This document shows, piece after piece, positions 3,319 through 41,507 of a stretch of 44,914 nt of DNA; position 1 is the stretch's first letter; every line of letters begins with the position of its first letter. The DNA lies in the IMG/VR virus record IMGVR_UViG_3300025267_000025, positions 1-44,914 of that record. The stretch is one strand, 5' to 3'. This DNA is from a virus (Duplodnaviria > Caudoviricetes). The position numbers were made by a program, and so were the translations under genes. The notes beneath the pieces were generated by a model. The model did not search any database. It worked only from the letters and a program-made list of their open reading frames with translations, and had not been told where the DNA came from.

Positions 3319-3354
3319 GAACCGGCCAAGAGGCCAAACAAATTGGAGAATATC

Positions 3355-4179: not shown

Positions 4180-4460
4180 GTCCGCATTCCAAGCTTCGAG
4201 AGCCCGAAATCCCGCCCGATCCTGTCGCATCGACGCTAGGCCGTCTCTCCGCCTCGCCTGTCGCCGCTTTTCCTTTCCGGGGCCTTCCCATTCCGGCCCT
4301 TCGTTTCGCCTCTCTCCGGCGATCCTCGAAGGCCGATATTCGAGGTCCAAGCCGAAAACGTCGCCGATCCTGACGAATTGATCCGTACACGGACTATTGT
4401 GGAGCTGGTCCGTTCAAAGAGGATCGAAAAGCAGACATTTTCAAAGAAAGTTCTCGAAAA

Positions 4461-4494
4461 ACTTTTCGGAACGCGCGAAGGGGAAAGGGCCGCG
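4461..4494 (+). repeat. Partial copy of dispersed non-coding element
   Basis: cttttcggaacgcgcgaaggggaaagggccgcg vs cttttcgtgacgcgagacgagaaagggccgcg ending at 15705; GAAAGGGCCGCG exact in both. Confidence 0.65.
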
Positions 4495-4539
4495 AAAAAC
4501 CGATCCCCTTTTGATTGCGGCCGGGGATGGAGAGCCAAG

Positions 4540-5367
4540 ATGGCATCGAGTAAAAAAGCAGTCGCCACGAAGTCTGAGAACAGCGTGGCGGCTTTTTCTT
4601 TTGAAGAGCACTCAGGACAGGGCCTGGAGAACGTCTCCGCCGAAACGCTGACGATCCCGCGCCTTGCTCTTCTTCAAGACCTCTCGCCACAGAAGAAAAG
4701 GTCCAAGCCCGAATACATCGAAGGTGCTGAAGAGGGACTGTTCTGCGATGTAACGATGGCCGAGCTTTATGGCGCGGAAATTGTAATTGTTCCGGTCTAC
4801 TTCCTTCGCCAATGGCTTGTCTGGAAGCCCCGCGAGAGCGGCGGTGGTCTTGTGGCGGTTCACGATCATGATCCGGGCACGGACAAAATGGATAGTGACG
4901 AGAACGGGAAGCCCATCGATGATGACGGCAATTCCGTCTCTGAGACGTATCAGTTCTACGTCCTCCTGCTCAATCGAGAGACGAAGCAGGTTGAGAGGAA
5001 GTTCTACCCCCTCTCATCGTCCGGCATCAAGCGGGCCAAGCGGTTCCTGACGCTTGCGACCTCGATCAAGCTTCAAGGATCGAATGGCGAATATACGCCG
5101 CCCCTTTTCTATTCGTCCTATCTCGTCAGGAGCGTTCCTGAGAGCGGACCGAAGGGCGATTGGCACACGCCAATTTTCGAGAGGCTCAAGCCCATCGCCG
5201 AGCTTGAGGACGAAGGCTTCAACCCTCAGTCCGTGTACGACGCAGCAGTCGAGTTCTACAAGATGATCTCGGCAGGCGAAGTCAAGGCCGATATGTCTCA
5301 GGACGAAAGCCAATCTTCCGGTGGCGGATCGTCCGCAGCCAACGTCGATGAATCGGAACCGATGTAA
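4540..5367 (+). CDS. Putative phage single-stranded DNA-binding protein
   Basis: IPRLALLQ.LSPQ...YIEGA..G motif of a siphophage SSB-like family; acidic C-tail; first gene of the replication cluster. Confidence 0.65.
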   Translation: MASSKKAVATKSENSVAAFSFEEHSGQGLENVSAETLTIPRLALLQDLSPQKKRSKPEYIEGAEEGLFCDVTMAELYGAEIVIVPVYFLRQWLVWKPRESGGGLVAVHDHDPGTDKMDSDENGKPIDDDGNSVSETYQFYVLLLNRETKQVERKFYPLSSSGIKRAKRFLTLATSIKLQGSNGEYTPPLFYSSYLVRSVPESGPKGDWHTPIFERLKPIAELEDEGFNPQSVYDAAVEFYKMISAGEVKADMSQDESQSSGGGSSAANVDESEPM

Positions 5368-5813
5368 TGCCGGTTGAAGGGAAGCCGCTCAACGTCAACA
5401 TCGTTCAATATCTACGGCGCTTCCATCGGGCGTTCGGGCATCCGTGCCCGGACGTTCCGGTCAAGCCGGATGAACAGTTGGCCAAACTTCGAGTCAATCT
5501 GATCCAAGAGGAGTTGGAAGAGCTTTCGGTCGCACTCGATAACGGCGATATGGCCGAAACCTTCGATGCTCTCATAGACCTCCAAGTCGTAGTCGCCGGT
5601 GCGGCTGTCGCGTTCGGCCTCGATAGGGCCTACGCGGACGGATTTGAAGAGGTCATGTCATCGAATATGTCCAAGCTTGGAGAGGACGGTCAGCCGATCT
5701 ATCGAGAGGACGGCAAGATTATGAAGGGGCCGAAGTATAGGCCACCCAATCTTCGCGCCGTGCTTCAGGACGTGTTCGGACGATCTGAGTGGGGAGGACC
5801 GAATGAGTTTTGA
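5367..5813 (+). CDS. MazG-like/PRA-PH family nucleoside triphosphate pyrophosphohydrolase
   Basis: LIQEELEEL...DALIDL...EEV..SNMSK.G.DG.PIYREDGKIMKG. Confidence 0.88.
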   Translation: MPVEGKPLNVNIVQYLRRFHRAFGHPCPDVPVKPDEQLAKLRVNLIQEELEELSVALDNGDMAETFDALIDLQVVVAGAAVAFGLDRAYADGFEEVMSSNMSKLGEDGQPIYREDGKIMKGPKYRPPNLRAVLQDVFGRSEWGGPNEF

Positions 5814-6363
5814 TTTCGAGAATGCGGTCAAGCCGACGAACAGTGACAAGCTGAATGAAGTTCAACGTCTCTACGCGGAGCAATTGAAGCTTGAACAAGT
5901 CGTATCTGCGATGGAGGAGCGGCTGGCCGAGGCCAAGAAGCGCAAGAACTACTACGAGCAAAAGCTTGTGCCTGAGGCCATGATGGAAACGGGCATCGGT
6001 TCGTTCTCGCCTGATGGCGCCGAATATGAGCTCAAGCTTTCGGACTACGTTTCGGGAAGTCTGCCCAAGGACGAAGTTGGCCGCAGAGAGGCGTTTGAAT
6101 ATCTCGATGAGATTGAAGGCGGATCGTCTCTGGCCAAGACTGAAGTCATCATGAAGTTCGGCAAAGGCCAAGAGGAAGAAGCAGAAGCGTTCATCGATAT
6201 GGTGACTTCGTCCAACTTCGGAAGCCCTGAAGTGAAGAAAGATGTTCATCACTCGACACTCAAAGCGTTCGCCAAAGAGAAGTTGAAGGAAGGCGATGCC
6301 CTTTCCCTCGATAAGCTCGGCTTGTCGGCAGGCAAATACGCGAAGCTTGCGAGGAAGAAATGA
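5803..6363 (+). CDS. Conserved phage protein, N-terminal coiled coil
   Basis: GGAGG RBS; coiled coil followed by VH.STLKAF.KE motif common in phage replication modules. Confidence 0.75.
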   Translation: MSFDFENAVKPTNSDKLNEVQRLYAEQLKLEQVVSAMEERLAEAKKRKNYYEQKLVPEAMMETGIGSFSPDGAEYELKLSDYVSGSLPKDEVGRREAFEYLDEIEGGSSLAKTEVIMKFGKGQEEEAEAFIDMVTSSNFGSPEVKKDVHHSTLKAFAKEKLKEGDALSLDKLGLSAGKYAKLARKK

Positions 6364-7304
6364 CGAAGTATTCCGTAATCGGAGCGGGGCTGGCGGGTCT
6401 ATATGCCGCCGCCCTGCTGAGAAATGAATGTTCATCCGTTCACGAACTTCAGTCAGAGCTTCCGAACAACCATCGGGCATTGCTGCGCTTTCGGACGAAT
6501 GAGGTGGGCAAGGCGCTGAACATTCCGTTCAAAGAAGTTAGCGTGGTCAAGCAAGTCCACACTTCCGTGGACAAGATTCAGACTGCGATCAACTACTCGT
6601 TGAAGACGACGGGCTCAATCCTCCCGCGTTCGGTTCTGTCCGCAGACGGACAGACTGTCACTCGATACGTGGCGCCTGCCGATCTGGTCCAGAAGATATA
6701 CGACCGCACGACTTGCGCGTATCATTTCCATTGGGACGCAGAAGAGAGGATTGGCCAACTCATCGACAGTGGACGGAACATCATCTCAACGCTGCCGATG
6801 AACCTCCTTGCCTTGATCCTCGACTATCCGTTCAAGGACGATCTGGAATGTAAGAGCGTCTCAGGCTACTCCCGAACAGTAGAGCTTGTGAATTGCGACT
6901 TCTACGGAACGATCTACGTTGCCGATCCTGACATCCCATTCTATCGGGTGTCATTCGTCGGTGATCGGATCATCGTGGAATACGCACAAAGGCCTGATGC
7001 CGGTCTAGGCGAGGACAACTTTGAGAAGCAGCTATACGATATGCTGAATCTCAACGACGTTCATCACCTCGCAGTCGATCCGTGCCCGCCGCTTGTCGAG
7101 CAGAGGTATGCTAAGATACTTCCGATCGATGATCGTCCGCGCAAGGAGTTCATACACTGGGCTACGAGTAAGTTCGGCATCTTCAGTTTCGGGCGCTTCG
7201 CGACTTGGCGTCCCGGCCTTCTCATGGACGATTTGGCCAAAGACCTCTCGGTCATTCAAGACATCGCAAACAGCGGGCAGTATCAAGCCCTTCGCAGGAG
7301 TTAA
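6360..7304 (+). CDS. FAD/NAD-binding Rossmann flavoprotein (UDP-galactopyranose mutase/amine oxidase-like)
   Basis: N-terminal VIGAGLAGL; C-terminal FGRFATW. Confidence 0.75.
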   Translation: MTKYSVIGAGLAGLYAAALLRNECSSVHELQSELPNNHRALLRFRTNEVGKALNIPFKEVSVVKQVHTSVDKIQTAINYSLKTTGSILPRSVLSADGQTVTRYVAPADLVQKIYDRTTCAYHFHWDAEERIGQLIDSGRNIISTLPMNLLALILDYPFKDDLECKSVSGYSRTVELVNCDFYGTIYVADPDIPFYRVSFVGDRIIVEYAQRPDAGLGEDNFEKQLYDMLNLNDVHHLAVDPCPPLVEQRYAKILPIDDRPRKEFIHWATSKFGIFSFGRFATWRPGLLMDDLAKDLSVIQDIANSGQYQALRRS

Positions 7305-7308
7305 GAGC

Positions 7309-8109
7309 ATGAGTGAAGAGTTCCAACACATCAAGGTCAGCCTACTCGATTACACGGGCAAGGGCCAGAAGTCGCCTGCTCTATACGCGGCGAGGCTCTT
7401 GGCCTACATCAAGAACACGCGGCTTGAAATGAACGCGGGCGCTTTCGAGAGGCTGATGCAGTGTCGGCCAGAAGATAAGGCGTGGCCGGACGAACGGACG
7501 CTGATGGAGGAGATTGCCTACATCGCCAACACGATCCGTTCAAGCTGGGAATTCGTGGACTACACTTTCCAGATTGAGGGCGTGTCGAGAGCCTTCACTC
7601 ACCAATTCGTCCGAACGCGACATGGTTCGTACGCTCAGCAAAGCCAACGCTCCGTGGACGTGTCCGGTTTTGAGACATACAAGCCGGAAAACGTGAGGAG
7701 CAATCCGACCGCGAACCATACGTGGAACGGCACCATGGAGGTCATCGACCAGTCATACAAATTGATGATCGAGGAAGGCGTATCGGCTCAGGACGCGAGG
7801 GGCGTTCTGCCTACGAATATTCACACGAATATCTGCGCGAAGTTCAACCTTCGGACGATGGCTGACCTTATCGCGAAGCGCCAGAACCTCCGTGCACAGG
7901 GCGAATACGGATACGTCGCCGGTCAATTCGAGAGGCTGATGAGAGAGGTTCATCCGTGGACCGATAATTTCATCGACCCCGACCGCTCGGCGACGCCTGC
8001 GCTTGATGAAATCTTAAAGGCAAGTCTGGGCACGGATAGTCCGGTTGACCGGCCTCTCGTCAATGACGCGCTGAAAGAGCTTGACAAGCTCAAAGGAGTT
8101 TGGGGCTAA
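7309..8109 (+). CDS. thyX: Flavin-dependent thymidylate synthase-like protein
   Basis: EF..YTF.IEGVSRAFTHQFVRTR..SYAQQSQR, A.DAR.VLP, N.R, AQ.E motifs. Confidence 0.85.
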   Translation: MSEEFQHIKVSLLDYTGKGQKSPALYAARLLAYIKNTRLEMNAGAFERLMQCRPEDKAWPDERTLMEEIAYIANTIRSSWEFVDYTFQIEGVSRAFTHQFVRTRHGSYAQQSQRSVDVSGFETYKPENVRSNPTANHTWNGTMEVIDQSYKLMIEEGVSAQDARGVLPTNIHTNICAKFNLRTMADLIAKRQNLRAQGEYGYVAGQFERLMREVHPWTDNFIDPDRSATPALDEILKASLGTDSPVDRPLVNDALKELDKLKGVWG

Positions 8110-8564
8110 TGTTGGACCAGAAATATATAATTGTGGACGTGGACGGAACAATCTCCAACTGCGAACACCGGATCAACTTCGCCAAGACGCAAGATTGGGA
8201 TGAGTTCCACTCTCGTTGCGACTGCGACGAACAGATCAAGGAAAACCTTGATGTCGTGGCGGGCCTCGCCGACACGTTTGAGATCATCTTGGTCACGGGA
8301 CGGCCTGAGAAGTATCGCCAGCAGACGGAAACTTGGCTCAAGGACCAGATGGTCTATCATCTGATCACGGACGTTCTCATGCGACCGAAGGATGACTACT
8401 CGCCGGACGGCGTGATGAAGGAAGGTCTGATCACGGAGTATTTCGGCAGCCTCTCGACTGCGCTTGAGAAGGTGACTGTGATCCTCGATGACCGGGACAA
8501 GGTTGTTGATCACTTCCGTGGTCTCGGCTTCAACGTATGGCAAGTAGCGGAAAGCGGTTACTGA
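8109..8564 (+). CDS. HAD-family phosphatase (PNKP phosphatase-domain-like)
   Basis: DVDGT, VTGR, LMRP..D, K and DDR motifs. Confidence 0.87.
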   Translation: MLDQKYIIVDVDGTISNCEHRINFAKTQDWDEFHSRCDCDEQIKENLDVVAGLADTFEIILVTGRPEKYRQQTETWLKDQMVYHLITDVLMRPKDDYSPDGVMKEGLITEYFGSLSTALEKVTVILDDRDKVVDHFRGLGFNVWQVAESGY

Positions 8565-9376
8565 TGGACTGTTTGAACATTCAAATTCCATCAGTGCGGC
8601 CTTCGATCCTGGAGACGCTCAGAACGTTTGACGAGCACTTTGCCGATCCTTTCGCGTTCTCTTTCACAGTGCACGGAAGGCATGAGCCGGAAGTCGAGAA
8701 GGAAGTCAGAGGCCATCACAGGGTCATCGACTACATTCCGCAGGCGGATGAAGCAAGGCCATCAATGTCTAAACTTCGTCGTGCGATGAATGTTCCGGGT
8801 CAGGAGCTTTGGATGGCGCTTGATGATGACGCTCGGTTCACGGAAGGTTCTGAGCGTTATTATTCCGAGTGCGTCAAGGCAGTGATCGAGGCGCGGGAGG
8901 ATTTCGGCAGGCCAATCTATCTGGGTACGGATGGTGCGTTCGGCTCTCGTTTTCACGGCGACCGCATCCACCTATCGAGGACGAATAGTCTGATGCCGAA
9001 CGGAAAGGGGCTGATATTCTGCGGCATCAACTTCGCGGGCGAGCGCTTCGATTTCATGGACAGGGTTGAAGGGGGTCTTGAAGACTTCCTATTCTGCTGT
9101 GCGGCAATCGAGCACTTCAATGCCGTTCCTCTTAAGCGGTTTTTGAACCCGACGAAGAACCACAAGTCAAACGAAGAACAGCGCAAGAGCAGCTTCATAC
9201 ACGACTACGACGTTTGGATGGCGAACGCAGTAAGGTTCATTCGCCAAATGTCCGGCGAGTACAGTTGGGTGATGCCAATAGGAATGGGAGACAAGGGGCC
9301 AAACAAGAGCAAGTGCCCCAGGCCATACATCAGAAGAACCGAAGCGTTGATGAAAGAGTTCCCCAAATATGCGTAA
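8564..9376 (+). CDS. Putative GT-A fold glycosyltransferase
   Basis: IPS.RP N-terminus, WMALDDD (DxD) and LEDF motifs resembling phage DNA-base glycosyltransferases. Confidence 0.6.
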   Translation: MDCLNIQIPSVRPSILETLRTFDEHFADPFAFSFTVHGRHEPEVEKEVRGHHRVIDYIPQADEARPSMSKLRRAMNVPGQELWMALDDDARFTEGSERYYSECVKAVIEAREDFGRPIYLGTDGAFGSRFHGDRIHLSRTNSLMPNGKGLIFCGINFAGERFDFMDRVEGGLEDFLFCCAAIEHFNAVPLKRFLNPTKNHKSNEEQRKSSFIHDYDVWMANAVRFIRQMSGEYSWVMPIGMGDKGPNKSKCPRPYIRRTEALMKEFPKYA

Positions 9377-9767
9377 GGAAACCCCCGTTCAAGTTCTTGA
9401 ACGTCTCACCGAAATGAAGAAAGCGAAGGGCTCGGAGTATTCTGATGGCCTCAACCTCAAAGAGTCATACGAGGTTCACGGAGAAATCATGGCTGCGCTG
9501 TTTCCGGTCGGCGTCGGTCTCAGGAGTGAGTCTGACTTCGCCCGCTTCGGCGTCCTGAATATGATCGTGTCCAAACTGTCTCGATACTGTTTGAACTTCG
9601 ATAAGGGCCATCACGATAGCGTTGACGATTTGATCGTTTACGGATCAATGTTGGCCAGCCTCGATTCCATAGCCTTCGGCCAGGAAAAGCCTGCCGGCGG
9701 CGTGGTCGTCTCGAATGTCTCGGTGAACGACGAAGAAGACAAGGGCGAAGTCGTGGAACGTCGATAG
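9369..9767 (+). CDS. All-alpha nucleotide-modification-associated protein (Nmad1/DUF6378-like)
   Basis: K...Y...; K.SRY....H.DS..DL.VY pattern. Confidence 0.6.
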   Translation: MRKETPVQVLERLTEMKKAKGSEYSDGLNLKESYEVHGEIMAALFPVGVGLRSESDFARFGVLNMIVSKLSRYCLNFDKGHHDSVDDLIVYGSMLASLDSIAFGQEKPAGGVVVSNVSVNDEEDKGEVVERR

Positions 9768-9927
9768 CGTCTCGCGAGGACGCGCGGAGAGGGGCGGGAC
9801 GCTTCCCCCGAGGGTTCCGGCCCCTCTCGACAATCCCGCGAACAGGCGGGCGGATTTCGAGGCCTACGGGCCTTCCCCTCTCTCTCGAAGGAAACGGACG
9901 CGCGAAACGGCGCGGAAGGGCTGATAA

Positions 9928-10464
9928 GTGGACATCATAGTATTTGATACGGAGACCACGGGTCTTCTCAAGAACCGTTTGTCTCCACTCGACAAGCAAC
10001 CTCAGATCATCGAACTATACGCGATGCGTCTTGACAAGGACCGAAAGAAGATTGATGAGATAGATGTTCTGGTTAACCCCAAGAAAAAGCTTGACGACAT
10101 CATCACGAAGATTACGGGGCTAACGGACGATGACTTGCGAGACGCAAGTGATTGGGCTGGGGTCCACGATCAAGTTCATAAGTTCTTCAGCGCGGCGCCC
10201 GCTCGCGTGTTCGGTCACAACCTATACTTTGACCTTGAGATGCTCAATCTCGAATACAGGCGGATGGGCTGTGAAGACTTAGTGCCGGCTGAGAAGGTCT
10301 GCACTGTTGAGGCGACCGAATACATCAAGGGCTATCGCTTGAGCCTTTCGGCACTTCATGAATATCTTTTCGGCGAGGCTTTCGAGGGCGCACACCGGGC
10401 GAAGATTGACGTTGAGGCGACGGCGCGCTGCGTCATTGAAATGGAAGGTCGAGGCATATGCTAA
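9928..10464 (+). CDS. dnaQ: DEDDh 3'-5' exonuclease (Pol III epsilon-like)
   Basis: FDTETTG, GHN..FD, AHRA..D. Confidence 0.88.
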   Translation: MDIIVFDTETTGLLKNRLSPLDKQPQIIELYAMRLDKDRKKIDEIDVLVNPKKKLDDIITKITGLTDDDLRDASDWAGVHDQVHKFFSAAPARVFGHNLYFDLEMLNLEYRRMGCEDLVPAEKVCTVEATEYIKGYRLSLSALHEYLFGEAFEGAHRAKIDVEATARCVIEMEGRGIC

Positions 10465-13328
10465 AGGTCAGGACCGGATACTCATTTCGATCCGCTGTCG
10501 GATCAATCGGCGAGGCCATCGAGGCGTTCAAGGCAGCAGACGCGACGAAGGCTGCGATTGCTGACACTTCGTCCTCATACGGATTTGTTCGCTGGAAGAA
10601 AGCTTGTCTGGCTGCGAACCTTCAGCCGATCTATGGCGTTGAGCTAGCTGTCTCGCCGGACATTCACGCGAAAAAGGTGACGACGGACTATTGGTCATTC
10701 TTCGCCGTTGATGATTTGGAGCCGCTCAACCAGCTTGTCTCGACTGCTACAAGCCAGTTCAGATACAATCCTCTCATCACCTACGAACAGGCCATCGACA
10801 ATCCACTTATCAAGGTTGTCGGCCATCGTGCGCTTCTTGACAGGATCGAAAGCTGGGCTGAGGACGCAGAACTTTCGCGCCTGTGGTTCGGCCTGTCTCC
10901 AGCCGTCTCGACTGGCTATTTTCGATCCGTTCAAAGAACGAAGTTTGCCGACCGATGGGTTGCGACCTCCACAAACCGATACATCACCGAGGACCAGTTT
11001 GGGCTCTATGAGACCATCTGTGGACGGAACGCGAACACCCAGACGTATCCGCAGCACTTTCTGTCCAAAGACGAATGGCGCCGAGAGGCGGACAGGATCG
11101 GGCTGACGGACGAACAGGCGCAGGATGCGCTGGAGAACGCGGAGAGGCTGTTTGATGATGTTACCGCCGAGCTTCCTAAGGCGACGCTCGCTAAGCCGGA
11201 ACGCCCCGATACCCTCAGGAATATGTGTGCCGAAGGTGCGAAAAGGCTCGGCGTGGACCTATCGGATGAGACGTATGCGGATCGTCTCGACAGGGAATTG
11301 GGCCTCATCGAGGATAAAGGATTTGAAGACTACTTCTATATCATGTCTGATATTTGCTCTTGGGCTCGTGATCGGATGCTCGTTGGTCCTGCTCGCGGCT
11401 CTGCTTGTGGTAGCCTGGTGTGTTATTTACTCCGTATCACGACTATTGATCCGATCCCGCACGGACTGATTTTTGAGCGGTTCATCGACATCAACCGGCC
11501 AGACCTTCCTGACGTTGACGTTGACTTTTCGGACACCAAGCGTCACCTCGTCCTTGAATACATCAAGCAGAAATACGGCGAGGACAGAGTATCTCAGCTG
11601 GGAACGGTCGGCATGTATCAGCCGCGCTCGGCGCTAAACGAAGTGGGCGGAGCATTCGACATTCCCAAGTGGGAAACTGAAGCCGTCCTCGATACTCTCA
11701 TCAAACGTTCGTCTGCGGACAGTCGCGCGCAAGACAAGCTTGAGGACACGATCAACGCGACGAAGGAAGGCAAACAGTTCGCGACTAAGTATCCGTTCGC
11801 TCGCGTGGCCTACGACATGGAAGGGCGCCCGAGATATCCGGGCAAACACGCGGCTGCGATCCTGTTGACCGAGAAGCCGGTGCGAACATACGTTCCCGTG
11901 GACGAGCGCGCGGGCACGACGATGTGCGATAAGAAGGATGCGGAGGAATTAGACTTTCTCAAGATTGACGCGCTAGGCTTGACTCAGCTTTCGATCCTTG
12001 AGGAGGCGATGGAACAGGCCGGTGTGGATCGTTCCGTGCTCGATGAATTGGAGCCGAACGATCCCAAAGCTTTTGAGGTCATGAACGATAAGAAGTTCAC
12101 GGGCATTTTCCAGTTCATGGGAGCGGCAGTGAAGTCCCTCGCTACACGGATCAAGTTTGACCGCTTCGATGATTTCTCGGCATTGTCCGCGCTCGGAAGG
12201 CCAGGGCCGCTCGCGACGGGCGGCGCCGACGAATGGATCGCAGTCCGCAACGGACTCAAAGAGCCCTTCTATCCTCACGAAGTCTTCAAGCCTTATCTTG
12301 AAGAGACGCTTGGCGTTATCATCTATCAAGAGCAGGTCATGACAATCGGTCGTGAGATCGGCGGGCTGTCTTGGGAAGACGTCACGGCACTTCGAAAGGC
12401 CATGTCCAAAAGTCTCGGCAAAGAGTATTTCGATCAGTTCGGCGACAAGTTCAAGTCCGGCGCTGAATCGAAGGGCGTGCCGCGAGAGACTTGCGAAAAG
12501 CTTTGGGACGATATGTGTGCCTACGGAGCGTGGGCGTTCAACAAGTCTCACGCCGTCGCCTACGGACGGATCAGCTACTGGTGTGCTTGGATGAAGGCAT
12601 ATCATCCGTATGAGTTCGCCGCCGCGACGCTGACCCACGAAGGCGATCCTAAGCGCCAAATCGAAATCCTCCGTGAACTCGCGAGAGAAGACATCAACTA
12701 CACGCCTGTTGATCCTGAGATCAGCGACGATAAGTGGCGCGTGAAGAGGAAGGAGGGCAAGACTTATCTCGTTGGTCCGGTCACGGCGGTCAAGGGCATC
12801 GGGCCGAAGATGGCGAGCCAGATCATATCGTGTCGTCAGCTTGGCGCTCCGCTCCCGGAACGGGCTCAGAAGCTTCTTGCGAACGCGGTCACGCCGGTCG
12901 ATAGTCTGTACCCTGTGCGTGATGCCGTGGCTCGTAATTGTCCGCCTCTCGATGAGATGAACATTTTGTCCGAACCCGTCCCATTACATAAGATCGGGCC
13001 GGACCATCACAACAAGAGTTTTCTGGTCATCGTTCGCATCGACAAGATCAAGCCGAACGATGAAAATGAAGAAGTGTATGTCGCAAGGAGAGGCGGCAAG
13101 AGGATTTCAGGGCCACATACTACTCGACTTATTCTTAAGATATCAGATGACACTGACGAAATAGTCGCGAAGGTTCACAGGAACCATTACGACAAACTGG
13201 GCAAACCGATTGTGGAACTGGGCGGGGCCGGCAAGGTCATATACGCGCTGAAGGGTCAACTCGCCTATTTGGACGGGTTCAGACTATTTAACATCCACAG
13301 AATCAAATACCTTACGAGGCTGGCGTGA
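10458..13328 (+). CDS. dnaE: DNA polymerase III alpha subunit (family C)
   Basis: GPARGSACGSLV.Y.L.IT.IDP, FERF, PDVDVDF, KIDALGL, GIFQF, RPGP, YQEQVM, FNKSHA. Confidence 0.96.
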   Translation: MLKVRTGYSFRSAVGSIGEAIEAFKAADATKAAIADTSSSYGFVRWKKACLAANLQPIYGVELAVSPDIHAKKVTTDYWSFFAVDDLEPLNQLVSTATSQFRYNPLITYEQAIDNPLIKVVGHRALLDRIESWAEDAELSRLWFGLSPAVSTGYFRSVQRTKFADRWVATSTNRYITEDQFGLYETICGRNANTQTYPQHFLSKDEWRREADRIGLTDEQAQDALENAERLFDDVTAELPKATLAKPERPDTLRNMCAEGAKRLGVDLSDETYADRLDRELGLIEDKGFEDYFYIMSDICSWARDRMLVGPARGSACGSLVCYLLRITTIDPIPHGLIFERFIDINRPDLPDVDVDFSDTKRHLVLEYIKQKYGEDRVSQLGTVGMYQPRSALNEVGGAFDIPKWETEAVLDTLIKRSSADSRAQDKLEDTINATKEGKQFATKYPFARVAYDMEGRPRYPGKHAAAILLTEKPVRTYVPVDERAGTTMCDKKDAEELDFLKIDALGLTQLSILEEAMEQAGVDRSVLDELEPNDPKAFEVMNDKKFTGIFQFMGAAVKSLATRIKFDRFDDFSALSALGRPGPLATGGADEWIAVRNGLKEPFYPHEVFKPYLEETLGVIIYQEQVMTIGREIGGLSWEDVTALRKAMSKSLGKEYFDQFGDKFKSGAESKGVPRETCEKLWDDMCAYGAWAFNKSHAVAYGRISYWCAWMKAYHPYEFAAATLTHEGDPKRQIEILRELAREDINYTPVDPEISDDKWRVKRKEGKTYLVGPVTAVKGIGPKMASQIISCRQLGAPLPERAQKLLANAVTPVDSLYPVRDAVARNCPPLDEMNILSEPVPLHKIGPDHHNKSFLVIVRIDKIKPNDENEEVYVARRGGKRISGPHTTRLILKISDDTDEIVAKVHRNHYDKLGKPIVELGGAGKVIYALKGQLAYLDGFRLFNIHRIKYLTRLA

Positions 13329-15550
13329 AAAAGTTCATCACTTCCCTTACTGATATTGATCCGATTGCGGAGTATCTTGCGAGGATCGGCGCTGAGGAAA
13401 GGTCGCTGCGGGCAGCAGTGATCAAAGATCAGAAAGGCGCCTACTGGGTTGACGTTTGCGTTGTCCGTTTCACCAAGGACGGCGTGTTGCTTCCGAAGGG
13501 CATGGAGGAATACGAACCAACGGACGCCGAGGCCAAGGCCATCGAGAGGGCGATGGATGACTATCAATGGCCGACCAGCGTTCCGGTTGATTCGTTGGCG
13601 GACCTTCCTGAGGAGGTTCGTGCTGTTGATCCTGATAATCGCTTCGTGTTCCGAAACACCAACGATCAGATTGTCATGGTTCAAGTTCGCATCGAGAACG
13701 CGAAGGGGGAGCGGGCATACGTTCCGTGGTCATACTGGTCGGATGGGAAGTGGCGCAGAGCAGAGCCGGAAGGGCCGCTGCCGCTTTGGGGCCTGGAAAA
13801 CATCGGCGACCATACTGTTGCGTTCGTTCATGAAGGGGCGAAAGCTGCGCGTCGAATGCAGCAGCTGTTCTACGGCGCTGACAAGGAAGCGGCGCGGGAG
13901 CATCCGTGGTATGACGAATTGTCCGTAGGCGTCCATATTGGGTGGATCGGCGGGGCCTTGTCGCCGAGGCGAACGGATTGGACCGCACTCAAGAAGGCGG
14001 GCATCAAGCGGCTCTATATTGTCTCAGACAATGATGCGCCAGGCAACAGCGCCGTTCCGCAAATCGCCGAACAGAACCATATGCCTTGTTATCATGTCCA
14101 GTTCACTCAACAGTGGCCGGCGAGTTTCGATCTAGGCGATGAGTTCCCTAAGCACTTCTTCAGAAAGAAGGGCGATAACGTCTTCTATATTGGGCCTTCA
14201 TTCCGCGACTGCGTTCAACCGGCGACATGGGCCACGGATATGAAGCCGAGCCCGACCGGCAAGGGAAGGCCGCACGCTGTGCTTCGTGATCACTTCGCCG
14301 AGCTTTGGGCTTACATTGAAGAAGTTGACATGTTCGTTTGTAAGGAAATGCCGACGATCATCAGGACTGACAAGATTCTAAACAATATGCTGTCAGCCTT
14401 CTCCCACGTCTCGAATACGACCCAGCATATCGTGAAAGCCTATCGAGGTCGCCAGACGAAGCTTTGCTACAGACCGGACGAAGACGGACGAATGATCATG
14501 GACGATGGTTCGCCCGCGATCAATCTTCATGTTCCTACCTCGATCAAGCCAGCGAAAGGCGACATCAAACCATTTCTCCAGTTCATGGAGTATATGTTTC
14601 CGAACTCGGACGAACGGCATACGGTCATGCGATGGTGTAAGACGCTCATTGCCCATCCAGAAGTCAGAATGGAATACGGACTGTTGCTTGTCAGCGTCAC
14701 GCAAGGCGTCGGCAAGACAACGCTCGGTTCACGGATATTAGCGCCGCTGGTTGGCCTCCACAACGTCTCGCAAACGCAAGAGACGGAAATCGTGGACAGC
14801 AACTTCAACGGATGGGTCGCCAACCGGCGCCTTGTCGTCGTGAACGAAATCTACGCGGGCCACAGCTGGAAAGCATACAACAAGTTGAAGGAGCTGATCA
14901 CGGACAAGATGATCAGCGTCAACAAGAAGTATGAGCGTCCATACATGATCCAGAACTGGGCGCATTTCTTCTGTTGCTCCAACTCGATGCAAGCTCTCAA
15001 AATGGAAGGGGACGACCGCCGTTGGTTCTATCCGATGATCACGGAAAAGTCTTGGGACAAACGATCATTCCAGAAGTTCTATGATTGGCTTGAGTCAGGC
15101 GGACTCTCTATCATCTATCACTGGGCACTCAACTCGCCGGACATTCAGCCGGTCACTCCCGGCGAACGCGCGCCGATGACCGCTCGCAAGAAGATGTTGA
15201 TCGAGGAGTCAAGATCGGAGGCTCAGCAAGAGGCCGTCGCGCTCGCCAACGAGATCAAGAGCAGAACGGAACCGCTCGCAATCTCGACCAAGGCCAGCCA
15301 TATATGGATCATCAATTCTGATCGTACACAGAAGGTATACGATAAGGAGTTTGAGATCAGGAAGGTTATGAAGGACGAAGGATTGATCGAATACGAACGA
15401 AGGCTCAAGATTGGGGGCCGAATGCATTACGTCTTGTTGAATGAGTCCGCCTACAGAGGATTGGAGGGAAAGGACGAAAACGAGCGCAACTCATTCGTCC
15501 GTTCACATCTTACTGGGCCGGAAGCGGTGTTCAACGAAGTAGCCATGTGA
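13325..15550 (+). CDS. Primase-helicase (TOPRIM plus DUF5906/SF3-type P-loop)
   Basis: HEG and SDND TOPRIM motifs; QGVGKTT, VVNE, CSN, DDRRW. Confidence 0.85.
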   Translation: MKKFITSLTDIDPIAEYLARIGAEERSLRAAVIKDQKGAYWVDVCVVRFTKDGVLLPKGMEEYEPTDAEAKAIERAMDDYQWPTSVPVDSLADLPEEVRAVDPDNRFVFRNTNDQIVMVQVRIENAKGERAYVPWSYWSDGKWRRAEPEGPLPLWGLENIGDHTVAFVHEGAKAARRMQQLFYGADKEAAREHPWYDELSVGVHIGWIGGALSPRRTDWTALKKAGIKRLYIVSDNDAPGNSAVPQIAEQNHMPCYHVQFTQQWPASFDLGDEFPKHFFRKKGDNVFYIGPSFRDCVQPATWATDMKPSPTGKGRPHAVLRDHFAELWAYIEEVDMFVCKEMPTIIRTDKILNNMLSAFSHVSNTTQHIVKAYRGRQTKLCYRPDEDGRMIMDDGSPAINLHVPTSIKPAKGDIKPFLQFMEYMFPNSDERHTVMRWCKTLIAHPEVRMEYGLLLVSVTQGVGKTTLGSRILAPLVGLHNVSQTQETEIVDSNFNGWVANRRLVVVNEIYAGHSWKAYNKLKELITDKMISVNKKYERPYMIQNWAHFFCCSNSMQALKMEGDDRRWFYPMITEKSWDKRSFQKFYDWLESGGLSIIYHWALNSPDIQPVTPGERAPMTARKKMLIEESRSEAQQEAVALANEIKSRTEPLAISTKASHIWIINSDRTQKVYDKEFEIRKVMKDEGLIEYERRLKIGGRMHYVLLNESAYRGLEGKDENERNSFVRSHLTGPEAVFNEVAM

Positions 15551-15572
15551 GGAACGATCCGGGAACGGAAAG

Positions 15573-15848
15573 TTTCTTTTCGGAAAGGGAGGGGTTCGGA
15601 TCAACCGTGAACAGACGTGTTCGTTTCGACCCCGTTCCAGTTCAGGAAATTGGCCGGAAAACCGACCGCCGCGCTTTTCGTGACGCGAGACGAGAAAGGG
15701 CCGCGGCATATCGAATATCGAGGGATCGGGATCGGATCGAAACCCTAAGTTCCAAGAGTTTCGAGAAAAGAAAGAAGAGAGGAGAGATATTGTTCCGAGA
15801 GTTCCCGAAAAACGCTGTTCGGGCCGATCCCGATCCTTTCCGAAAAGA
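15573..15848 (+). repeat. Dispersed non-coding element with 14-bp terminal inverted repeats
   Basis: TCTTTTCGGAAAGG (15575-15588) / CCTTTCCGAAAAGA (15835-15848); inverted homolog at about 41265-41507. Confidence 0.8.
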
Positions 15849-15872
15849 CATGAGAGTTGAGAAGGAAAAGAA

Positions 15873-21883: not shown

Positions 21884-21886
21884 TGT

Positions 21887-24178: not shown

Positions 24179-24186
24179 TTTTCCTC

Positions 24187-27936: not shown

Positions 27937-29954
27937 TAGTCCGCCCTCCTCCTAACTCCAGAGAAGTTCCGTTGCATCGAGCGTGCGGCCCTTCCGTGTC
28001 GTTGGAAATCAGCCTCGATCACCTCTATGATGTGCTCGGTCGATCCGTTGTTGTCTCGTTGCTGAGTCGATATGCGAGCGGACGAATTATTGTTGACAAC
28101 AATATTAGTCTGTCCGCCGCCATTCGGCACGACGCGGCTGGCCGTGAGCGGAACAATCGTTTCAGGGCCAGCTTCGCCGACTTGATAAGCCAGGCCTGGC
28201 ATGACCAATCCGCCACCGGACTTTCCGCCACCGAAGCCGCCACCGAAGCCGCTAACAAGCCCGTTCAGAATGCCGCCGAAGATTGCGCCGCCGAGACTGT
28301 CCTTGCCACCGAACAAGCCGCTCAGCGCGTCGCCTAGAACGCCTGACAAGAGGTCGCCGAGGCCACCGACAACTTGTCCAAGGGTGCTGTCCATGTCGAG
28401 GCCAAGCTGCTCTGCGACCGCCGAAATATCGCCGGATTCAACGAAGTCTTTGACGCCTTTCGCAAGAGCTTCTTCATGGTCCTTTGCCTCTTTATCCTTG
28501 GCCTCTTTGTCCTCTTCAGACTTCGCGTCTTTGATCCTTTGTGCTGCTTCGGCTCTCGCCTCAAACAGTTCATTGATGTATTCTTCGGCTTCGGCCTGAG
28601 CCTTGGCTTCATCAATGCCGAGAGAACGAAGCGTTGAGATCGTGTCCATCAACTCAAGTTGGCGGGTGAGTTTCTCTGCCAACTCATCGTTCTCTTCAAG
28701 TTCAGCAATGCGAAGCTCTTGCCTAATCCTCAGCTTCTCAAGCAACTCCTCTTGAGACTGATTGTATGTATCGGCAGCTTCCTTTTCGGTCTTGGCCGTT
28801 TCAAGACGAACCTTGGCTTCATCAGACCTTTTCTTATTCGTCTCTTCAGCAACTTCTTCTGCTTCAGCGCGGGCTTCGATTTCAAGCTGAGTCTGTTCAG
28901 CAATCTGAGCCTGAATCTCGGCTCGCTCGCGCTCAATCTCAACAAGCCGCTTGGCGTTTTCTTCTTTGCGTTTGTCAAGATTTTCGGCACCGAAGGCGTT
29001 GGGGTACTTGACGTCACCCGTCAAAGTGATCCGTGCTCGGAAGGCACCACGATCATTCGTAAGCTGTTCGTTCTCTCGCGTCAGCTGACGTTGTTCCGTG
29101 GCCAGAGCAGTATCGCGGCCCGAAAGGGTTGTAGTATCCTCAAGAGCGCGGGAAAGCAAGAAGTCTCTCGACTTGGTGATGACGTCATCGAAGGCTTCGG
29201 CAACAAGATCAAGCTCATCAGAATAAGCAGCAAGGGCAGTTACGCCGACGCCATTGAGACTGTCAAACAGTTTGGTGAACTTTTGGTTGGCTTCTTCGGC
29301 AGATTGGATGAGAGACTCATCCATGATCCGCCCCGTGTCTTCCATCTCATCGCCGAACCTTTGAAGATAGCCTTCGCCTTTCTCGAAAAGCTCAATCAAT
29401 TCGTTCCCGCGCCCACCGAAGATTTGGGCTGCGAGAGCCGCCGCCCGCTGTTCGTCGTTGAGGCTCGCTAGCGCGTCCGTAATCTTGATGAACTTCTGAT
29501 CGACCGTGAGGCCGGCCAATTCTTCCATCTTGATTCCAAGCTGGTTGAGCGCTTCGAAGCCTTCGCCGGTTCCATATTCGGCAGCCTCGCCGAGCTTTTC
29601 ATTCAAGTCGATAAACAGGTCACGAACTTCAATCGTGCCGTCGCCGATCCGAGACAAGGCAAGATCAAGCTTTTGGTAGCCCTGAGCGGACGCGCCGACT
29701 GATCGGGAAAGTTTCGCAATCTCTGAACCCTGTTTTATCATCGCGAGGGTCGCCGCTCCCGCCGAAGCCGCGAGGCCCGCGAGCGCGACCCCTCCCGCGC
29801 GTCCGAGCCTCCCGAGCGAGCCCTCCGCGAGGCCCGCGCGGGTTTCGACATCGCGAAGGGCCGTCGAGACGCTTTCCGCCGCGCCGGACATTTGTTTGCG
29901 AAATTTCGAGACTTCAGCGTCAAGAACAACCTTGACTTTTTCAACTACCGCCAT
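27936..29954 (-). CDS. Tape measure protein
   Basis: Helical Ala/Glu-rich; C-terminal GG.V.PG..Y.VGE.GPE. Confidence 0.88.
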   Translation of the reverse strand: MAVVEKVKVVLDAEVSKFRKQMSGAAESVSTALRDVETRAGLAEGSLGRLGRAGGVALAGLAASAGAATLAMIKQGSEIAKLSRSVGASAQGYQKLDLALSRIGDGTIEVRDLFIDLNEKLGEAAEYGTGEGFEALNQLGIKMEELAGLTVDQKFIKITDALASLNDEQRAAALAAQIFGGRGNELIELFEKGEGYLQRFGDEMEDTGRIMDESLIQSAEEANQKFTKLFDSLNGVGVTALAAYSDELDLVAEAFDDVITKSRDFLLSRALEDTTTLSGRDTALATEQRQLTRENEQLTNDRGAFRARITLTGDVKYPNAFGAENLDKRKEENAKRLVEIERERAEIQAQIAEQTQLEIEARAEAEEVAEETNKKRSDEAKVRLETAKTEKEAADTYNQSQEELLEKLRIRQELRIAELEENDELAEKLTRQLELMDTISTLRSLGIDEAKAQAEAEEYINELFEARAEAAQRIKDAKSEEDKEAKDKEAKDHEEALAKGVKDFVESGDISAVAEQLGLDMDSTLGQVVGGLGDLLSGVLGDALSGLFGGKDSLGGAIFGGILNGLVSGFGGGFGGGKSGGGLVMPGLAYQVGEAGPETIVPLTASRVVPNGGGQTNIVVNNNSSARISTQQRDNNGSTEHIIEVIEADFQRHGRAARSMQRNFSGVRRRAD

Positions 29955-30195
29955 CCTTGACGCCTCTCGTTTTCACCATTTCAGATATACGCCGATGCTC
30001 CTCAATTTCTTGGTCCGTGATCGGACTGTTCGGGGCATCGCGCTCGTGACGCCTTCTGTGGCCTTCAAACATCGCAGTGTATTCGTACCACGTCAACGCA
30101 AGAACGTCTTTGGGCCTTGATATTCCGAACACGGAGCAATTGGCGTAAATAGTCGGGAGGCAGAAGAACTTTGTTCCGCCGCCTCCCCCTTTCAA
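29941..30195 (-). CDS. Tail assembly chaperone, frameshift (T) part
   Basis: Lies in the -1 frame after the chaperone; LTW.EY motif. Confidence 0.65.
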   Translation of the reverse strand: MKGGGGGTKFFCLPTIYANCSVFGISRPKDVLALTWYEYTAMFEGHRRRHERDAPNSPITDQEIEEHRRISEMVKTRGVKDGGS

Positions 30196-30569
30196 TTTGG
30201 GTCCGCAGTCTCCTGACGGGCCTTCGTGGTCTCATCGGCATAGCCAACAAGAGCGACCTTGGCGACCGCCTGGGCGTATGTCGAGAACCAAGAGAGGGGC
30301 TTGCCCTCTTGATGAGCATTGAACAGATCACGGATGGCTTTCGGTTCCATCCCGCCCGATTCAAGAGCGTTGATCATAACGCTCTTTGCCCAGAGTATCT
30401 TCCACGACTGGTTGATAGCGAGGGCCGTGATGACCTTCTGAATCGGCTCACCCGTATCATTCTCGATGCGGAGCATTGCGCCAATATCGACCTTGAACGT
30501 CCTTTCTTCACCACAGAAGAAAAGATCAATCTGGTTCGGATGCCAGTTTTGATTTCGGAAGTTCATCAC
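30192..30569 (-). CDS. Tail assembly chaperone (G)
   Basis: Between tail tube and TMP; ends in a slippery site. Confidence 0.7.
   Translation of the reverse strand: MMNFRNQNWHPNQIDLFFCGEERTFKVDIGAMLRIENDTGEPIQKVITALAINQSWKILWAKSVMINALESGGMEPKAIRDLFNAHQEGKPLSWFSTYAQAVAKVALVGYADETTKARQETADPN
30195..30201 (-). other. -1 programmed ribosomal frameshift site C-CCA-AAT
   Basis: XXXYYYZ heptamer in the correct phase just before TGA; -1 frame continues into 29941-30195. Confidence 0.75.
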
Positions 30570-34233: not shown

Positions 34234-34254
34234 GATTTCTCCTTGGTCAGAGTA

Positions 34255-36670: not shown

Positions 36671-36673
36671 TCA

Positions 36674-39342: not shown

Positions 39343-39860
39343 TTGCCTTCGTCCGTGGACGCCTCATCTTTGGGCTTGGTCTTCCGTTCACCGACCAATT
39401 TGGCGATACGTCCGAGCACAGATTGAGCTTTGCCGCTTTCGTCTTGTTCGGGCAGCTGGTCTTGAGCGCCGCCCCACAGTTGACGCTGGCGCTTGTTGAG
39501 CCAATATTCAGCGGCCTTCTGATCCGGGAGGATCGGGACCGTTATCTCAATCACTTCATTCTCGCCGTTTGGCGTCTTGCGGATAACCTCTTTGGTCGCC
39601 TCGTATCCAATGGCGTTCGCGTAAGCCTGCTTCGCAACCTTTGCGTCAGCGAGCGTTCCACCGCTGATGATCGCATCCTCAAAATCGGGATGGGTCTTCA
39701 TCCAGTTGTAGATGGTCGTGACGTGGACGCGGAAGACCTTGGCCAATTCGGCCTTGGACGTAATTCCGAGTAGCGCGAGCGAATGCGCTTGCTCCGCATA
39801 CTCAGGCTTGTATTTGTTCGTGTCCGGCGGAATTTGCTTTTTGCGTTCAGTGTCGGACAT
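39339..39860 (-). CDS. terS: Terminase small subunit
   Basis: KY.PEYA..A, HTH with TIYNW...HP.F, PD..AA.YWL..R; GAGG RBS at 39860. Confidence 0.85.
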   Translation of the reverse strand: MSDTERKKQIPPDTNKYKPEYAEQAHSLALLGITSKAELAKVFRVHVTTIYNWMKTHPDFEDAIISGGTLADAKVAKQAYANAIGYEATKEVIRKTPNGENEVIEITVPILPDQKAAEYWLNKRQRQLWGGAQDQLPEQDESGKAQSVLGRIAKLVGERKTKPKDEASTDEGK

Positions 39861-40560
39861 GGCGCCCTCGATTTTCGGCAGCCTTCGGACTTTGCGATAA
39901 GTCTGAATACGGAGGGATTGACCCATCAGACATATCGCGGGGGCCGCTAGCGTCTCGCCTCTCAAGAGGTGACGTCTGATCAACGGTCGTCCGGCCATCG
40001 TCCTGTCGCGTTCGGGCGAGAATGTCGAGAGGAATCTTTGCCTTTTTCTCCGAGCCCAGAAGATACATATTGACGAGAGCCGATGGCCCTTCGATCTTCA
40101 GCGCCTTCATTGGTCCGCCGAAGATTGATCCGTGTTCGGATATAAAGGCAACGCTGTCGCCGACCTCGATTGGCTCTTTGATTTCTTTCTTCCGTGCACG
40201 GCGGTCTCGACGCTCGGCGACGTATCGAGATACGATTGCCTTGGACAATTCTTCCGCCCACGTCTTGATCCCTAGCATCTGCTGCTCGGTAAGATATATC
40301 GTCTCGCCGTTCATTTCGAGAGGCGCCATGCGCTCGGCTTCAACAGGCGTTCGCCAATCCACAGTGGCTGGACGAACGAAGGCATAGCCTTCGAGCAGCG
40401 GAAGGCGCTTCGATGCCTTGCGCTTCGATCTACGATTGACGCGAACGCGCGCGCGTAAGGAGGGCTGATAGTCCTCGATGAAGTATCCGTCAGCGGTCAG
40501 ACGTTTCACGCGGTCATGGTTCGCGGGCCATAGGATGACCCAAAGCTTTCCGCCGCTCAT
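39847..40560 (-). CDS. NusG/RfaH-family transcription antitermination factor
   Basis: NGN-like W.I...YQP...PLLEGYAFV; KOW-like EVGDSV....G.FGG...V....LG. Confidence 0.75.
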   Translation of the reverse strand: MSGGKLWVILWPANHDRVKRLTADGYFIEDYQPSLRARVRVNRRSKRKASKRLPLLEGYAFVRPATVDWRTPVEAERMAPLEMNGETIYLTEQQMLGIKTWAEELSKAIVSRYVAERRDRRARKKEIKEPIEVGDSVAFISEHGSIFGGPMKALKIEGPSALVNMYLLGSEKKAKIPLDILARTRQDDGRTTVDQTSPLERRDASGPRDMSDGSIPPYSDLSQSPKAAENRGRHVRH

Positions 40561-41111
40561 TGGATCGTGCTCGGACCATTCGAGGCCGAGGCGCCTTTGG
40601 CCGGGCCTGTTCCGTTCACGAACACCGGGAGGTGCGGATCAACGAGAGGGGCCGAGGCACGCGTGCCTTCCTCGACAGTGAGGATGGCCGTGATGTATTC
40701 GGCGACACGTTCAGCTGCGATTGTTTGATAAGGTCGGCGCACGTCCATTTTCGGAACCTTGCCTTCAAGCACAAACTCCGGCCACGGAACGATGATGTGA
40801 GGCTTCAGCTCAAGCTGGTCGCCGAACAGCACGAAGGTTCGCTGAACTCGATTGACATTCATATGCCAATGAACTTGATCGACACGAAGGTGGGTGGCTG
40901 CGATGCCCTTGACGGGACTGTTGCCTTTCTCGATGGCCTTGGACATACGTTCACTGTTGTATAGCTTCAACTCAACGGGAGCGAACAGATTGTATTTTTG
41001 GACGGGCACGAACAAATCGGCGACGCCAGTCTCGCCGCCTTGGCCATGCTCGACTGCGTATGATCCGGGGATGGCCGAGAGGAGCTTGGCCTTCAGTTGA
41101 TTCTCGTTCAC
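40557..41111 (-). CDS. PD-(D/E)XK nuclease (VRR-NUC/Holliday resolvase-like)
   Basis: MNE..L, G.AD, ELK, Q..W. Confidence 0.65.
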   Translation of the reverse strand: MNENQLKAKLLSAIPGSYAVEHGQGGETGVADLFVPVQKYNLFAPVELKLYNSERMSKAIEKGNSPVKGIAATHLRVDQVHWHMNVNRVQRTFVLFGDQLELKPHIIVPWPEFVLEGKVPKMDVRRPYQTIAAERVAEYITAILTVEEGTRASAPLVDPHLPVFVNGTGPAKGASASNGPSTIQ

Positions 41112-41264
41112 GATGGGGGAGACCTTTTCAAGCGATAGCCGACGATAGACCGTGTGCGGACGTATGACAACCTTTGTCTGTGAACGGAACGCCCAGGGGC
41201 CTTCGAGATTGATCGGTGCACGGTTGAAATTTTTCCGATGACGGACGGACTCAAACGAAAAACG

Positions 41265-41507
41265 TTTTCGCTTCGGACGGATCGGGGATCGGTCGGCGAG
41301 AGCGAATCCGGGAACTCCCGAGAAAAATATATACCCCCTCTCCTTTCTCTCGACACTTTATAGAAACAAGGGGTTCGATCCGATCTCGATCCTTCTCCCT
41401 TCGCCCACCTATCCCCTTGTTTCGTCTCGCGAAAAAGAACCGGCAGCGGATCGTTTCGGAGTCGAGATTGTTTCGGTCGGCGATGTTTCGACCTTTCCGA
41501 AAAGAAA
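41265..41507 (-). repeat. Inverted diverged copy of the 15573-15848 element
   Basis: CCTTTCCGAAAAGAAA (41492-41507) equals the reverse complement of 15573-15588; colinear blocks CGGGAACT, TCGATCCGATC, TCGTCTCGCG. Confidence 0.8.

Follow-up and report, generated by a model that had tools for sequence, protein, structure and literature searches.

The stretch of DNA analysed here (44,914 nucleotides, hereafter the window) represents a complete marine siphophage with a 44,768-bp circle. Family scans of the window detected a tail tube, a tape measure and a J-like tip but no match to a tail sheath, and none of the 62 window proteins scanned was recognised as a topoisomerase. A candidate DNA modification module on the plus strand comprises genes for a MazG-like nucleotide pyrophosphohydrolase (5367..5813), a flavoprotein assigned to phrog_4828 (6360..7304; about 33% identity to its Pbunavirus homolog), a ThyX-like flavoenzyme (7309..8109; about 37% identity to Pbunavirus homologs), a HAD/PNKP-type phosphatase (8100..8564), a GT-A-fold glycosyltransferase-like protein (8537..9376) and a small conserved protein with no assigned function (9369..9767), which matches 107 loci. 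On the same strand follow a Pbunavirus-like replication set of 3'-5' exonuclease and DnaE-type DNA polymerase (9928..13328) and a primase-helicase gene (13325..15550). The predicted fold of the flavoprotein resembles UDP-galactopyranose mutase (pLDDT 88.9; E 3e-10; TM 0.61), and the ThyX-like protein carries RTR in place of the RHR of the solved enzyme. No close homolog of the glycosyltransferase-like product was found; its neighbour clusters include the TAGT family (20-30% of members), the gene occurs at only 2 of the relatives' loci fetched, and folding 8564-9376 from its sequence alone gave no usable model (pLDDT 37). Predicted folds in the module fit nucleotide-sugar chemistry.

Distributed over this genome are six islands, each about 150-211 bp long, in which TG and CA steps are rare outside the context TGT/ACA. 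The earlier note had described them from hand counts of TG and CA steps, and a program returned exactly the same values for islands 1 to 6, with the TGT/ACA part in brackets: 4 (2), 2 (2), 6 (6), 8 (7), 3 (3) and 2 (2). Pooled over the islands, 3 TG[A/C/G] steps (TGV, read as BCA on the other strand) were observed where 96 were expected (TGA 0 vs 43, TGC 2 vs 25, TGG 1 vs 28), and TGT was not depleted (22 vs 24). The longest gaps free of TG[ACG]/[CGT]CA have lengths of 214 (start at 16015), 168 (9754), 159 (29738), 158 (23127) and 154 (41251), with the next-longest in the window at 99 (15752). Seven regions surpassed every one of 15 order-3 Markov simulations, the seventh being a weaker zone at 15681..15858. 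For the three islands within genes, 0, 1 and 0 TGV steps compare with 13.5, 13.9 and 14.1 under 500 synonymous resamplings, and the minima with the protein fixed were 5, 6 and 8. The longest gap in these resamplings, a comparison that leaves the three intergenic islands aside, had a mean of 80 and a maximum of at most 135 (observed 214, 159 and 158). The claimed depletion thus held against codon-preserving shuffles, none of 500 giving equally long TGV-free runs, and the purge of TG[A/C/G] acts on silent sites. The quasi-regular spacing was also borne out, the six centres being more even on the circle than random (CV 0.26, P=0.003) in a post hoc test on six points that leaves out the zone at 15681..15858; no weak island lies in the 11.5-kb gap among the 20 lowest windows checked.

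Island 1 (4190..4350; 2 TGV/BCA steps) is intergenic, and island 2 (9755..9924; no TGV) separates the modification module from the exonuclease gene. Three islands are read in frame: island 3 (16016..16231; no TGV) in a helicase gene, island 4 (23128..23300; one TGV) in a putative tail-fibre gene of 763 amino acids and island 5 (29739..29899; no TGV) early in the tape-measure gene. The linker containing island 3 is extended by about 45-50 amino acids relative to most of 22 homologs. Island 6 (41252..41407), whose two TG+CA steps are both TGT/ACA, lies at the divergence of the early and late gene blocks; it contains purine/pyrimidine tracts and a TATATA run and continues in a weaker TG-poor tail to about 41720. 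The satellite zone at 15681..15858 directly follows the primase-helicase gene and has a 27-nt inverted copy (89%) in common with island 6; both may be origin-like. No binding word common to the islands was found beyond composition, nor any DNA similarity between them and other phages. AGT appeared as a second avoided word (3 vs 20), an effect that fades once the protein and the TGV ban are fixed, and GC and CG content call for no further cause beyond these two. The coding islands are also poor in TA (2 vs about 10), which may come from a codon-junction bias outside the null model.

The avoided step has a counterpart in the chemistry of Pbunaviruses. About one quarter of T in the DNA of F8 and 14-1 consists of sugar derivatives, and TG-containing restriction sites of F8 resist cutting (PMC12191111); the accessible text of that report assigns no genes to the modification and describes no unmodified islands. 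Homologs of the ThyX-like protein, flavoprotein, phosphatase, exonuclease and DnaE polymerase are common to the window and F8/PB1 (33-37% identity), and the target step reported there is the step avoided here. The window differs as a 45-kb siphophage with an added glycosyltransferase-like gene and an apparently exempt TGT, and its islands are strong, whereas those of PB1 are weak. It does not belong to the genus Pbunavirus, which has a genome of about 66 kb with a contractile tail sheath, compared with 44.8 kb and no sheath here. In PB1, TG contains 27% and TGV 23% of T, matching near-complete modification, and the shares in the window (26% and 21%) give the extent of replacement predicted for this phage. 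By homology to the Pbunaviruses, we infer that T in this phage is modified at TG[A/C/G]; T is chosen over C in CA on the basis of the Pbunavirus mass spectrometry, as the sequence alone cannot separate the two. The earlier note's proposal of a base modification in TG context, from which the islands would be free, draws support from module homology and from the specificity of the islands for TG and for the module, with the modification of this genome argued from its relatives.

A dinucleotide context for T modification is also described for M6, ViI and phiW-14, which carry 5-hmdU-derived hypermodification at TG/TC (PMC6449724); family scans of the window, however, named no homolog of the 5-hmdU pathway. 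No TG-free islands were found in 50 kb of the TG/TC-modified M6. Restriction-site avoidance, a familiar phenomenon in phages, is likewise a response of sequence to a system that marks or cuts DNA, whereas the avoidance seen here is local, periodic and aimed at what is likely the phage's own mark. Animal CpG islands are likewise local unmarked zones at functional sites; they keep the target step and shield it, while the window islands delete it.

We then compared other phages with a composition-adjusted island test (150 bp, p<1e-4), which replaced an earlier Markov-null survey of 72 loci that was uninformative, other steps having yielded equally many islands. In 85 module loci the density of TG islands was 18.8 per Mb, compared with no more than 2.3 for any other step, and 45 controls had none. 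Among held-out module loci, 11 of 81 carried TG-poor islands compared to 0 of 45 controls (Fisher 0.0075), leaving 70 without an island at this threshold. TG islands are thus linked to the module across phages, and they accompany it in phages of Vibrio, Cronobacter and marine bacteria. TGV, unlike TG, failed to separate module loci from controls (Fisher 0.10 and 0.36). The controls had no islands, as the earlier note had expected of phages without the module, but many module-bearing relatives lack them too. Several islands per genome were seen in Ss1, in the closely related VA-RY-3 and PVA7 (the PVA7 record is broken into 98 short CDS, with less reliable reading frames) and in the genomes G001 (5 islands) and G002 (7 islands). 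Most Lindbergviridae-type and other module-bearing genomes have no dispersed islands, and in Carpasina, PY059YO380, WTB, MyoSmar and Gekk3-15 they are absent or marginal; none of the window genes distinguishes genomes rich in islands from those poor in them. ECML-117 has a single TG-poor early cassette of 1.7 kb, and BcepF1, which lacks the module, has a TG-poor stretch adjoining its primase gene (p=3e-4). The exemption of TGT, strong in the window, is not general: TGT is depleted in the islands of Ss1 (15 vs 33), PVA7 (12 vs 41) and VA-RY-3 (2 vs 28). A literature search on three island-bearing podophages by name gave only unrelated papers among the matches listed.

To explore which protein might use the islands, we scanned them with the 130-bp E. 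coli gyrase motif from Topo-Seq (matrix of Table DS10 in PMC6379681), which may differ from the motif of the window's host. The matrix ranks the Mu site and one pSC101 site first, and the island lengths (152-211 bp) match or exceed the motif. Islands 1, 5, 3 and 4 are peaks 2, 3, 4 and 9 of the genome, with partly GC-driven scores of 12.0 (centre 4287), 11.4, 11.1 and 9.8 compared to 12.5 for Mu in the same scan; islands 2 and 6 score 8.7 and a low 2.9, and the highest peak (28204) lies outside the islands. In the window, 4 of the top 10 peaks fall within TG-poor windows (0.24 expected). Four discovery genomes gave 11 such peaks (1.1 expected), 14 held-out records gave 10 (1.4 expected) and 7 controls gave none (0.26 expected); a composition-neutral version gave 3 vs 1.4 in the held-out records, so the raw enrichment is partly due to GC content. 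In motif fit, 15 discovery coding islands surpassed their TG-free synonymous versions (p=2e-4; composition-neutral 1e-4), random coding segments being calibrated in this test, and 5 further coding islands, two of which (from PB1) were not blind, gave p=0.06 and 0.003. No motif excess was detected in 49 held-out TG-poor islands (Fisher 0.78), where control windows gave 0.01 and hence mark the dinucleotide-shuffle null as lenient, or in 11 weak islands of named genomes (Fisher 0.91). In whole held-out records, the 19 intergenic islands reached p=0.008 and the 3 coding islands p=0.36. Phased G+C of about 10.75 bp (GC periodicity at 10-11.5 bp) was absent from the window islands (p=0.54) and present in those of the three podophages (0.013-0.047); purine/pyrimidine and CG signals peaked near period 10 in a post hoc trial of 10 signals.

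The Mu SGS and pSC101 sites resemble the islands in length scale, in the high matrix scores that four of these reach and, if the gyrase reading holds, as DNA elements through which a phage recruits a host enzyme (PMC6379681, PMC10052514). They have ordinary TG+CA contents (16 and 18 per 130 bp), and Mu has one central site, whereas the window would have about five dispersed ones, three of them inside genes, defined by a missing modifiable step and without significant plain GC periodicity.

In the reading we prefer, the phage would attach a bulky sugar to T at TG[A/C/G], and the purge of this step on both strands would leave plain DNA in the six islands, at places where the virion chromosome has to be wrapped or opened by proteins. 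The five dispersed islands, which are GC-rich, would likely serve host DNA gyrase, and proteins that start replication would use island 6 and the zone adjoining the primase gene. That the islands are modification-free landing pads seems probable by homology with the Pbunaviruses; given this, the motif evidence leaves gyrase about evenly poised as their user, and for the explanation as a whole we see an even chance.

We consider it possible, if less probable, that modification-free windows serve a different user, such as RNA polymerase, packaging or ejection, repair or recombination proteins, or simple hinges where the chromosome has been stiffened. Whatever speaks for TG avoidance favours such a user to the same degree. 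Further points for it are the early cassette of ECML-117, the failed held-out motif test and the podophage promoters, as 4 of 18 strong sigma-70-like matches of the three podophages fall in islands, which make up about 4% of the genome. In the window, however, neither of the two strong -35/-10 matches falls inside an island and their surroundings are not TG-poor, so a role as sigma-70 promoters was rejected; island 6 holds one 9/12 match, and the module-control comparison of -35 usage yielded too few cases to be interpreted. The mid-gene position of three islands, the lack of a common binding word and the lean of silent sites towards the gyrase motif also argue against this alternative. It is unlikely that the removal was driven by an enzyme, of host or phage origin, whose cutting, damage or binding at TG[A/C/G] would be harmful in these regions, with the phage's own modification not the cause. 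The reader of the step cannot be named from the genome text, many module-bearing phages lack islands and BcepF1 has a TG-poor stretch without the module; yet the islands follow the module across the three host groups, and it is the avoided step at which module-bearing phages are reported to carry their modification.

Mechanical or structural elements unrelated to modification, among them the stiff segments that the earlier note had offered as an alternative, are highly improbable. TA is the most kinkable step, and it is halved in the GC-rich window islands (11 vs 23); it is doubled, however, in the AT-rich islands of relatives (142 vs 70, 129 vs 54 and 163 vs 72), so the rule is TG avoidance rather than stiffness. 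TGT/ACA is moreover retained at a normal rate, and the Mu and pSC101 sites show no TG deficit. RNA or DNA hairpins were not supported: among the z-scores of 7 folds, six range from -1.6 to 0.4 and one reaches -2.2. Chance, amino-acid composition or an assembly artefact is negligible: the coding islands do encode Gly/Ala/Ser/Glu-rich stretches in which Q, H, M, W and C are scarce (1/69, 2/56 and 2/51), but the protein-fixed resampling refutes this origin, the pattern recurs in unrelated phages, and a second assembly (run X1), which possibly represents the source sample and is hence not independent, is identical across 9000-17000.

More broadly, and more tentatively, sugar-armoured phages may lay out unarmoured windows along their genomes, rewriting silent codons and stretching protein linkers such that host gyrase meets a plain site of 130-200 bp every 6-7 kb. 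Hypermodification would then have a topological cost that genome architecture bears, and the missing word, here TG[A/C/G], would reveal the modified context without chemistry. We found no described system of modification-free periodic islands in the literature searched. The cultured phages Ss1, VA-RY-3 and PB1 make the idea directly testable. If true, it would reveal a cost of phage DNA armour that we did not find described in that literature, together with the way phages pay it, and the modified context could be read from sequence alone in uncultured phages. It would also predict the sites at which a modified genome stays open to nucleases that the modification otherwise blocks, and mark the stretches to leave untouched in engineered therapeutic phages.

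The earlier note's hand counts of TG and CA steps were reproduced exactly in all six islands of the window (starting at 4190, 9755, 16016, 23128, 29739 and 41252), and the islands are real. In the pooled islands (1,011 bp, both strands), TGA occurred 0 times versus 43 expected, TGC 2 versus 25 and TGG 1 versus 28, with TGT at 22 versus 24. Seven regions of the window beat an order-3 Markov null. Likewise, the coding islands fell far below the proposed codon-preserving shuffle (500 synonymous resamplings, proteins fixed), with 0 steps versus 13.5 in the helicase island, 1 versus 13.9 in the fibre island and 0 versus 14.1 in the tape-measure island, which indicates selection on the DNA itself. 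Given the protein and a ban on TG[A/C/G] (TGV), the GC and CG richness of these coding islands needs no extra cause, and no avoidance of TGT was detected in them. In most of 22 homologs, the linker occupied by the helicase island is shorter by about 45-50 residues. As previously described, the islands share a rule and not a sequence, since no word is common to them, and their quasi-regular spacing is more uniform than chance would give (P = 0.003, post hoc). The islands of the podophage Ss1 are also more evenly spaced than random (0.002), which was not seen in the podophages VA-RY-3 (0.11) and PVA7 (0.52).

To relate the islands to the set of ThyX-like and flavoprotein genes (the module), we surveyed 85 module loci (deduplicated, each 10 kb or longer) and 45 controls, with expectations adjusted for local base composition. 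Module loci contained 18.8 TG islands per Mb, compared to at most 2.3 per Mb for nine other steps, and the controls contained none. The suggestion that islands follow the module was borne out in part: after removal of the four discovery genomes, islands at p < 1e-4 were present in 11 of 81 module loci and 0 of 45 controls (Fisher 0.0075), and at p < 1e-3 in 35 of 81 and 5 of 45, but most module loci have none at the stricter threshold, and the ~20-kb pieces are biased, as module loci were centred on replication genes and most controls on capsid genes. Seven island-bearing records were extended to whole or nearly whole length, among them G001, G002 and G003 with 5, 7 and 4 islands. Islands were weak in PB1, absent or marginal in the stretches read of Carpasina, PY059YO380, WTB, MyoSmar and Gekk3-15, and absent within 50 kb in M6. 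ECML-117 shows a lone 1.7-kb TG-poor block (6696-8455) that takes in small early genes as well as a promoter match. Pairs of islands formed by element copies within one genome were observed in G001 (12756-13050 and 16306-16605) and G002 (19691-19970 and 40586-40740).

Ss1, VA-RY-3 and PVA7 carry 5-8 islands per genome. The exemption of TGT, complete in the window, holds only in part in Ss1 and PVA7, and VA-RY-3 lacks it. The DNA ligase gene hosts an island in all three podophages (26470-26640 in L001, 21680-21960 in L002 and 18040-18250 in L007), and an entire 65-codon gene is nearly free of TG/CA in L001 (5832-6029) and L007 (38943-39140; 4 and 3 versus ~17 expected). Taken together, the TGV purge is local and two-stranded, operates via silent sites and linker choice, and is linked to the module.

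Hairpins were not supported by folding. The idea that the islands are stiff DNA is contradicted by the podophage islands: because these have a GC content of 37-45% and doubled TA, the rule is that TG is missing, rather than that the DNA is GC-rich or stiff. Nor are the islands the promoters of the window phage, as its four best early-type matches (1634, 2680 and 3064 on the plus strand, 41170 on the minus strand) all fall outside them. All four have the -35 box TTGTCA instead of TTGACA, which places TGT, the exempt step, on the top strand. In the podophages, promoters lie within a minority of islands (4 of 18 strong matches); one of them (L002) has a back-to-back promoter-like pair at 30107-30290, each with a TG-free -35 box (TAGACG) and a 17-bp spacer.

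The window represents an entire circular phage contig whose termini overlap by 146 bp, and its sequence is present in a marine metagenome run. The early genes share the plus strand with a replication block (MazG-like, flavoprotein, ThyX-like, phosphatase, glycosyltransferase-like, exonuclease, DnaE, primase, helicase), and a siphovirus virion block takes up the minus strand; family scans of the 62 proteins named neither an RNA polymerase nor a topoisomerase. A pyrimidine-dimer glycosylase-like gene (PF03013, E 1.7e-5) lies in the early region (43056-43628), and a protein with a long Lys/Ala/Glu-rich tail (3301-4128), which had no match in family scans, stops immediately ahead of island 1. For DnaE, ThyX and the flavoprotein, matches came from Pbunavirus-like myophages as well as from Cronobacter Ss1, Vibrio VA-RY-3 and Vibrio PVA7. 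The predicted flavoprotein fold resembles UDP-galactopyranose mutase, the ThyX motif is altered, and the protein at 8564-9376 looks like a GT-A glycosyltransferase, its TAGT-family neighbours offering a lead. We infer that the module makes a DNA mark. According to PMC12191111, about one quarter of T in F8 and 14-1 is replaced by sugar derivatives, and all five enzymes unable to cut F8 carry TG in their recognition sites; 27% of the T of PB1 is located in TG and 23% in TGV. A 2026 preprint describes native nanopore assemblies of Pbunaviruses that failed.

As a possible user of the five dispersed islands we analysed host gyrase with the published E. coli matrix (PMC6379681, Table DS10), which may not fit the gyrase of the host. 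Peaks 2, 3, 4 and 9 of the window correspond to islands 1, 5, 3 and 4. Top-10 peaks fell inside TG-poor windows 11 times versus 1.1 expected in the four discovery genomes (composition-neutral 8 versus 1.1), 10 versus 1.4 in 14 held-out records (3 versus 1.4) and 0 versus 0.26 in seven controls (1 versus 0.26). Furthermore, in a test calibrated on 180 random coding segments, coding islands outscored their own TG-free synonymous versions in the window (three islands, p = 0.01) and in the discovery set (15 islands, p = 2e-4); five further islands gave p = 0.06 raw and 0.003 neutral. No gyrase-motif excess was found in 49 held-out islands (0.78; control windows 0.01), and simple GC periodicity is absent from the window's islands. 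The top matrix peak in Mu is the annotated Mu site and that in pSC101 lies at 4740, which we take to be the known gyrase site of the plasmid; unlike the window islands, both sites have ordinary TG content. In PB1, the two top peaks (10750 and 21956; 13.3 and 15.8) lie within genes, the former in a TG-poor stretch that encodes low-complexity sequence close to the end of gp18. A SELEX preprint reports that gyrase is favoured by GC-rich motifs regardless of phasing, which would fit the GC-rich islands, yet lowers the specificity of the matrix test. Host gyrase is the best-supported named user of the dispersed islands, but it is not established.

A 27-nt inverted copy (89%) with GGATC-type units connects island 6 (41369-41395) with the zone that follows the primase gene (15720-15746), 25.6 kb apart, and both regions appear origin-like. 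G002 likewise has two tract-rich TG-poor zones ~26 kb apart. Origins may be TG-poor by nature: in BcepF1, a phage without the flavoprotein, a TG-poor stretch (20786-20985) adjoins the primase.

The islands are probably modification-free windows, as the earlier note proposed; the purge and its link to the module stood, but modification of the phage's T is deduced and the user uncertain. In line with its remark that it knew of no such described system, no paper on modification-free islands in phage genomes was found in the literature covered, subscription journals excepted. The phage would modify T at TG[A/C/G], and bulky sugars would impede proteins that need to wrap or melt DNA, so that purged windows would remain plain DNA. 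Host gyrase could load at these windows every 6-7 kb and relax the supercoiled incoming chromosome, and the origin-like pair may be where replication starts.
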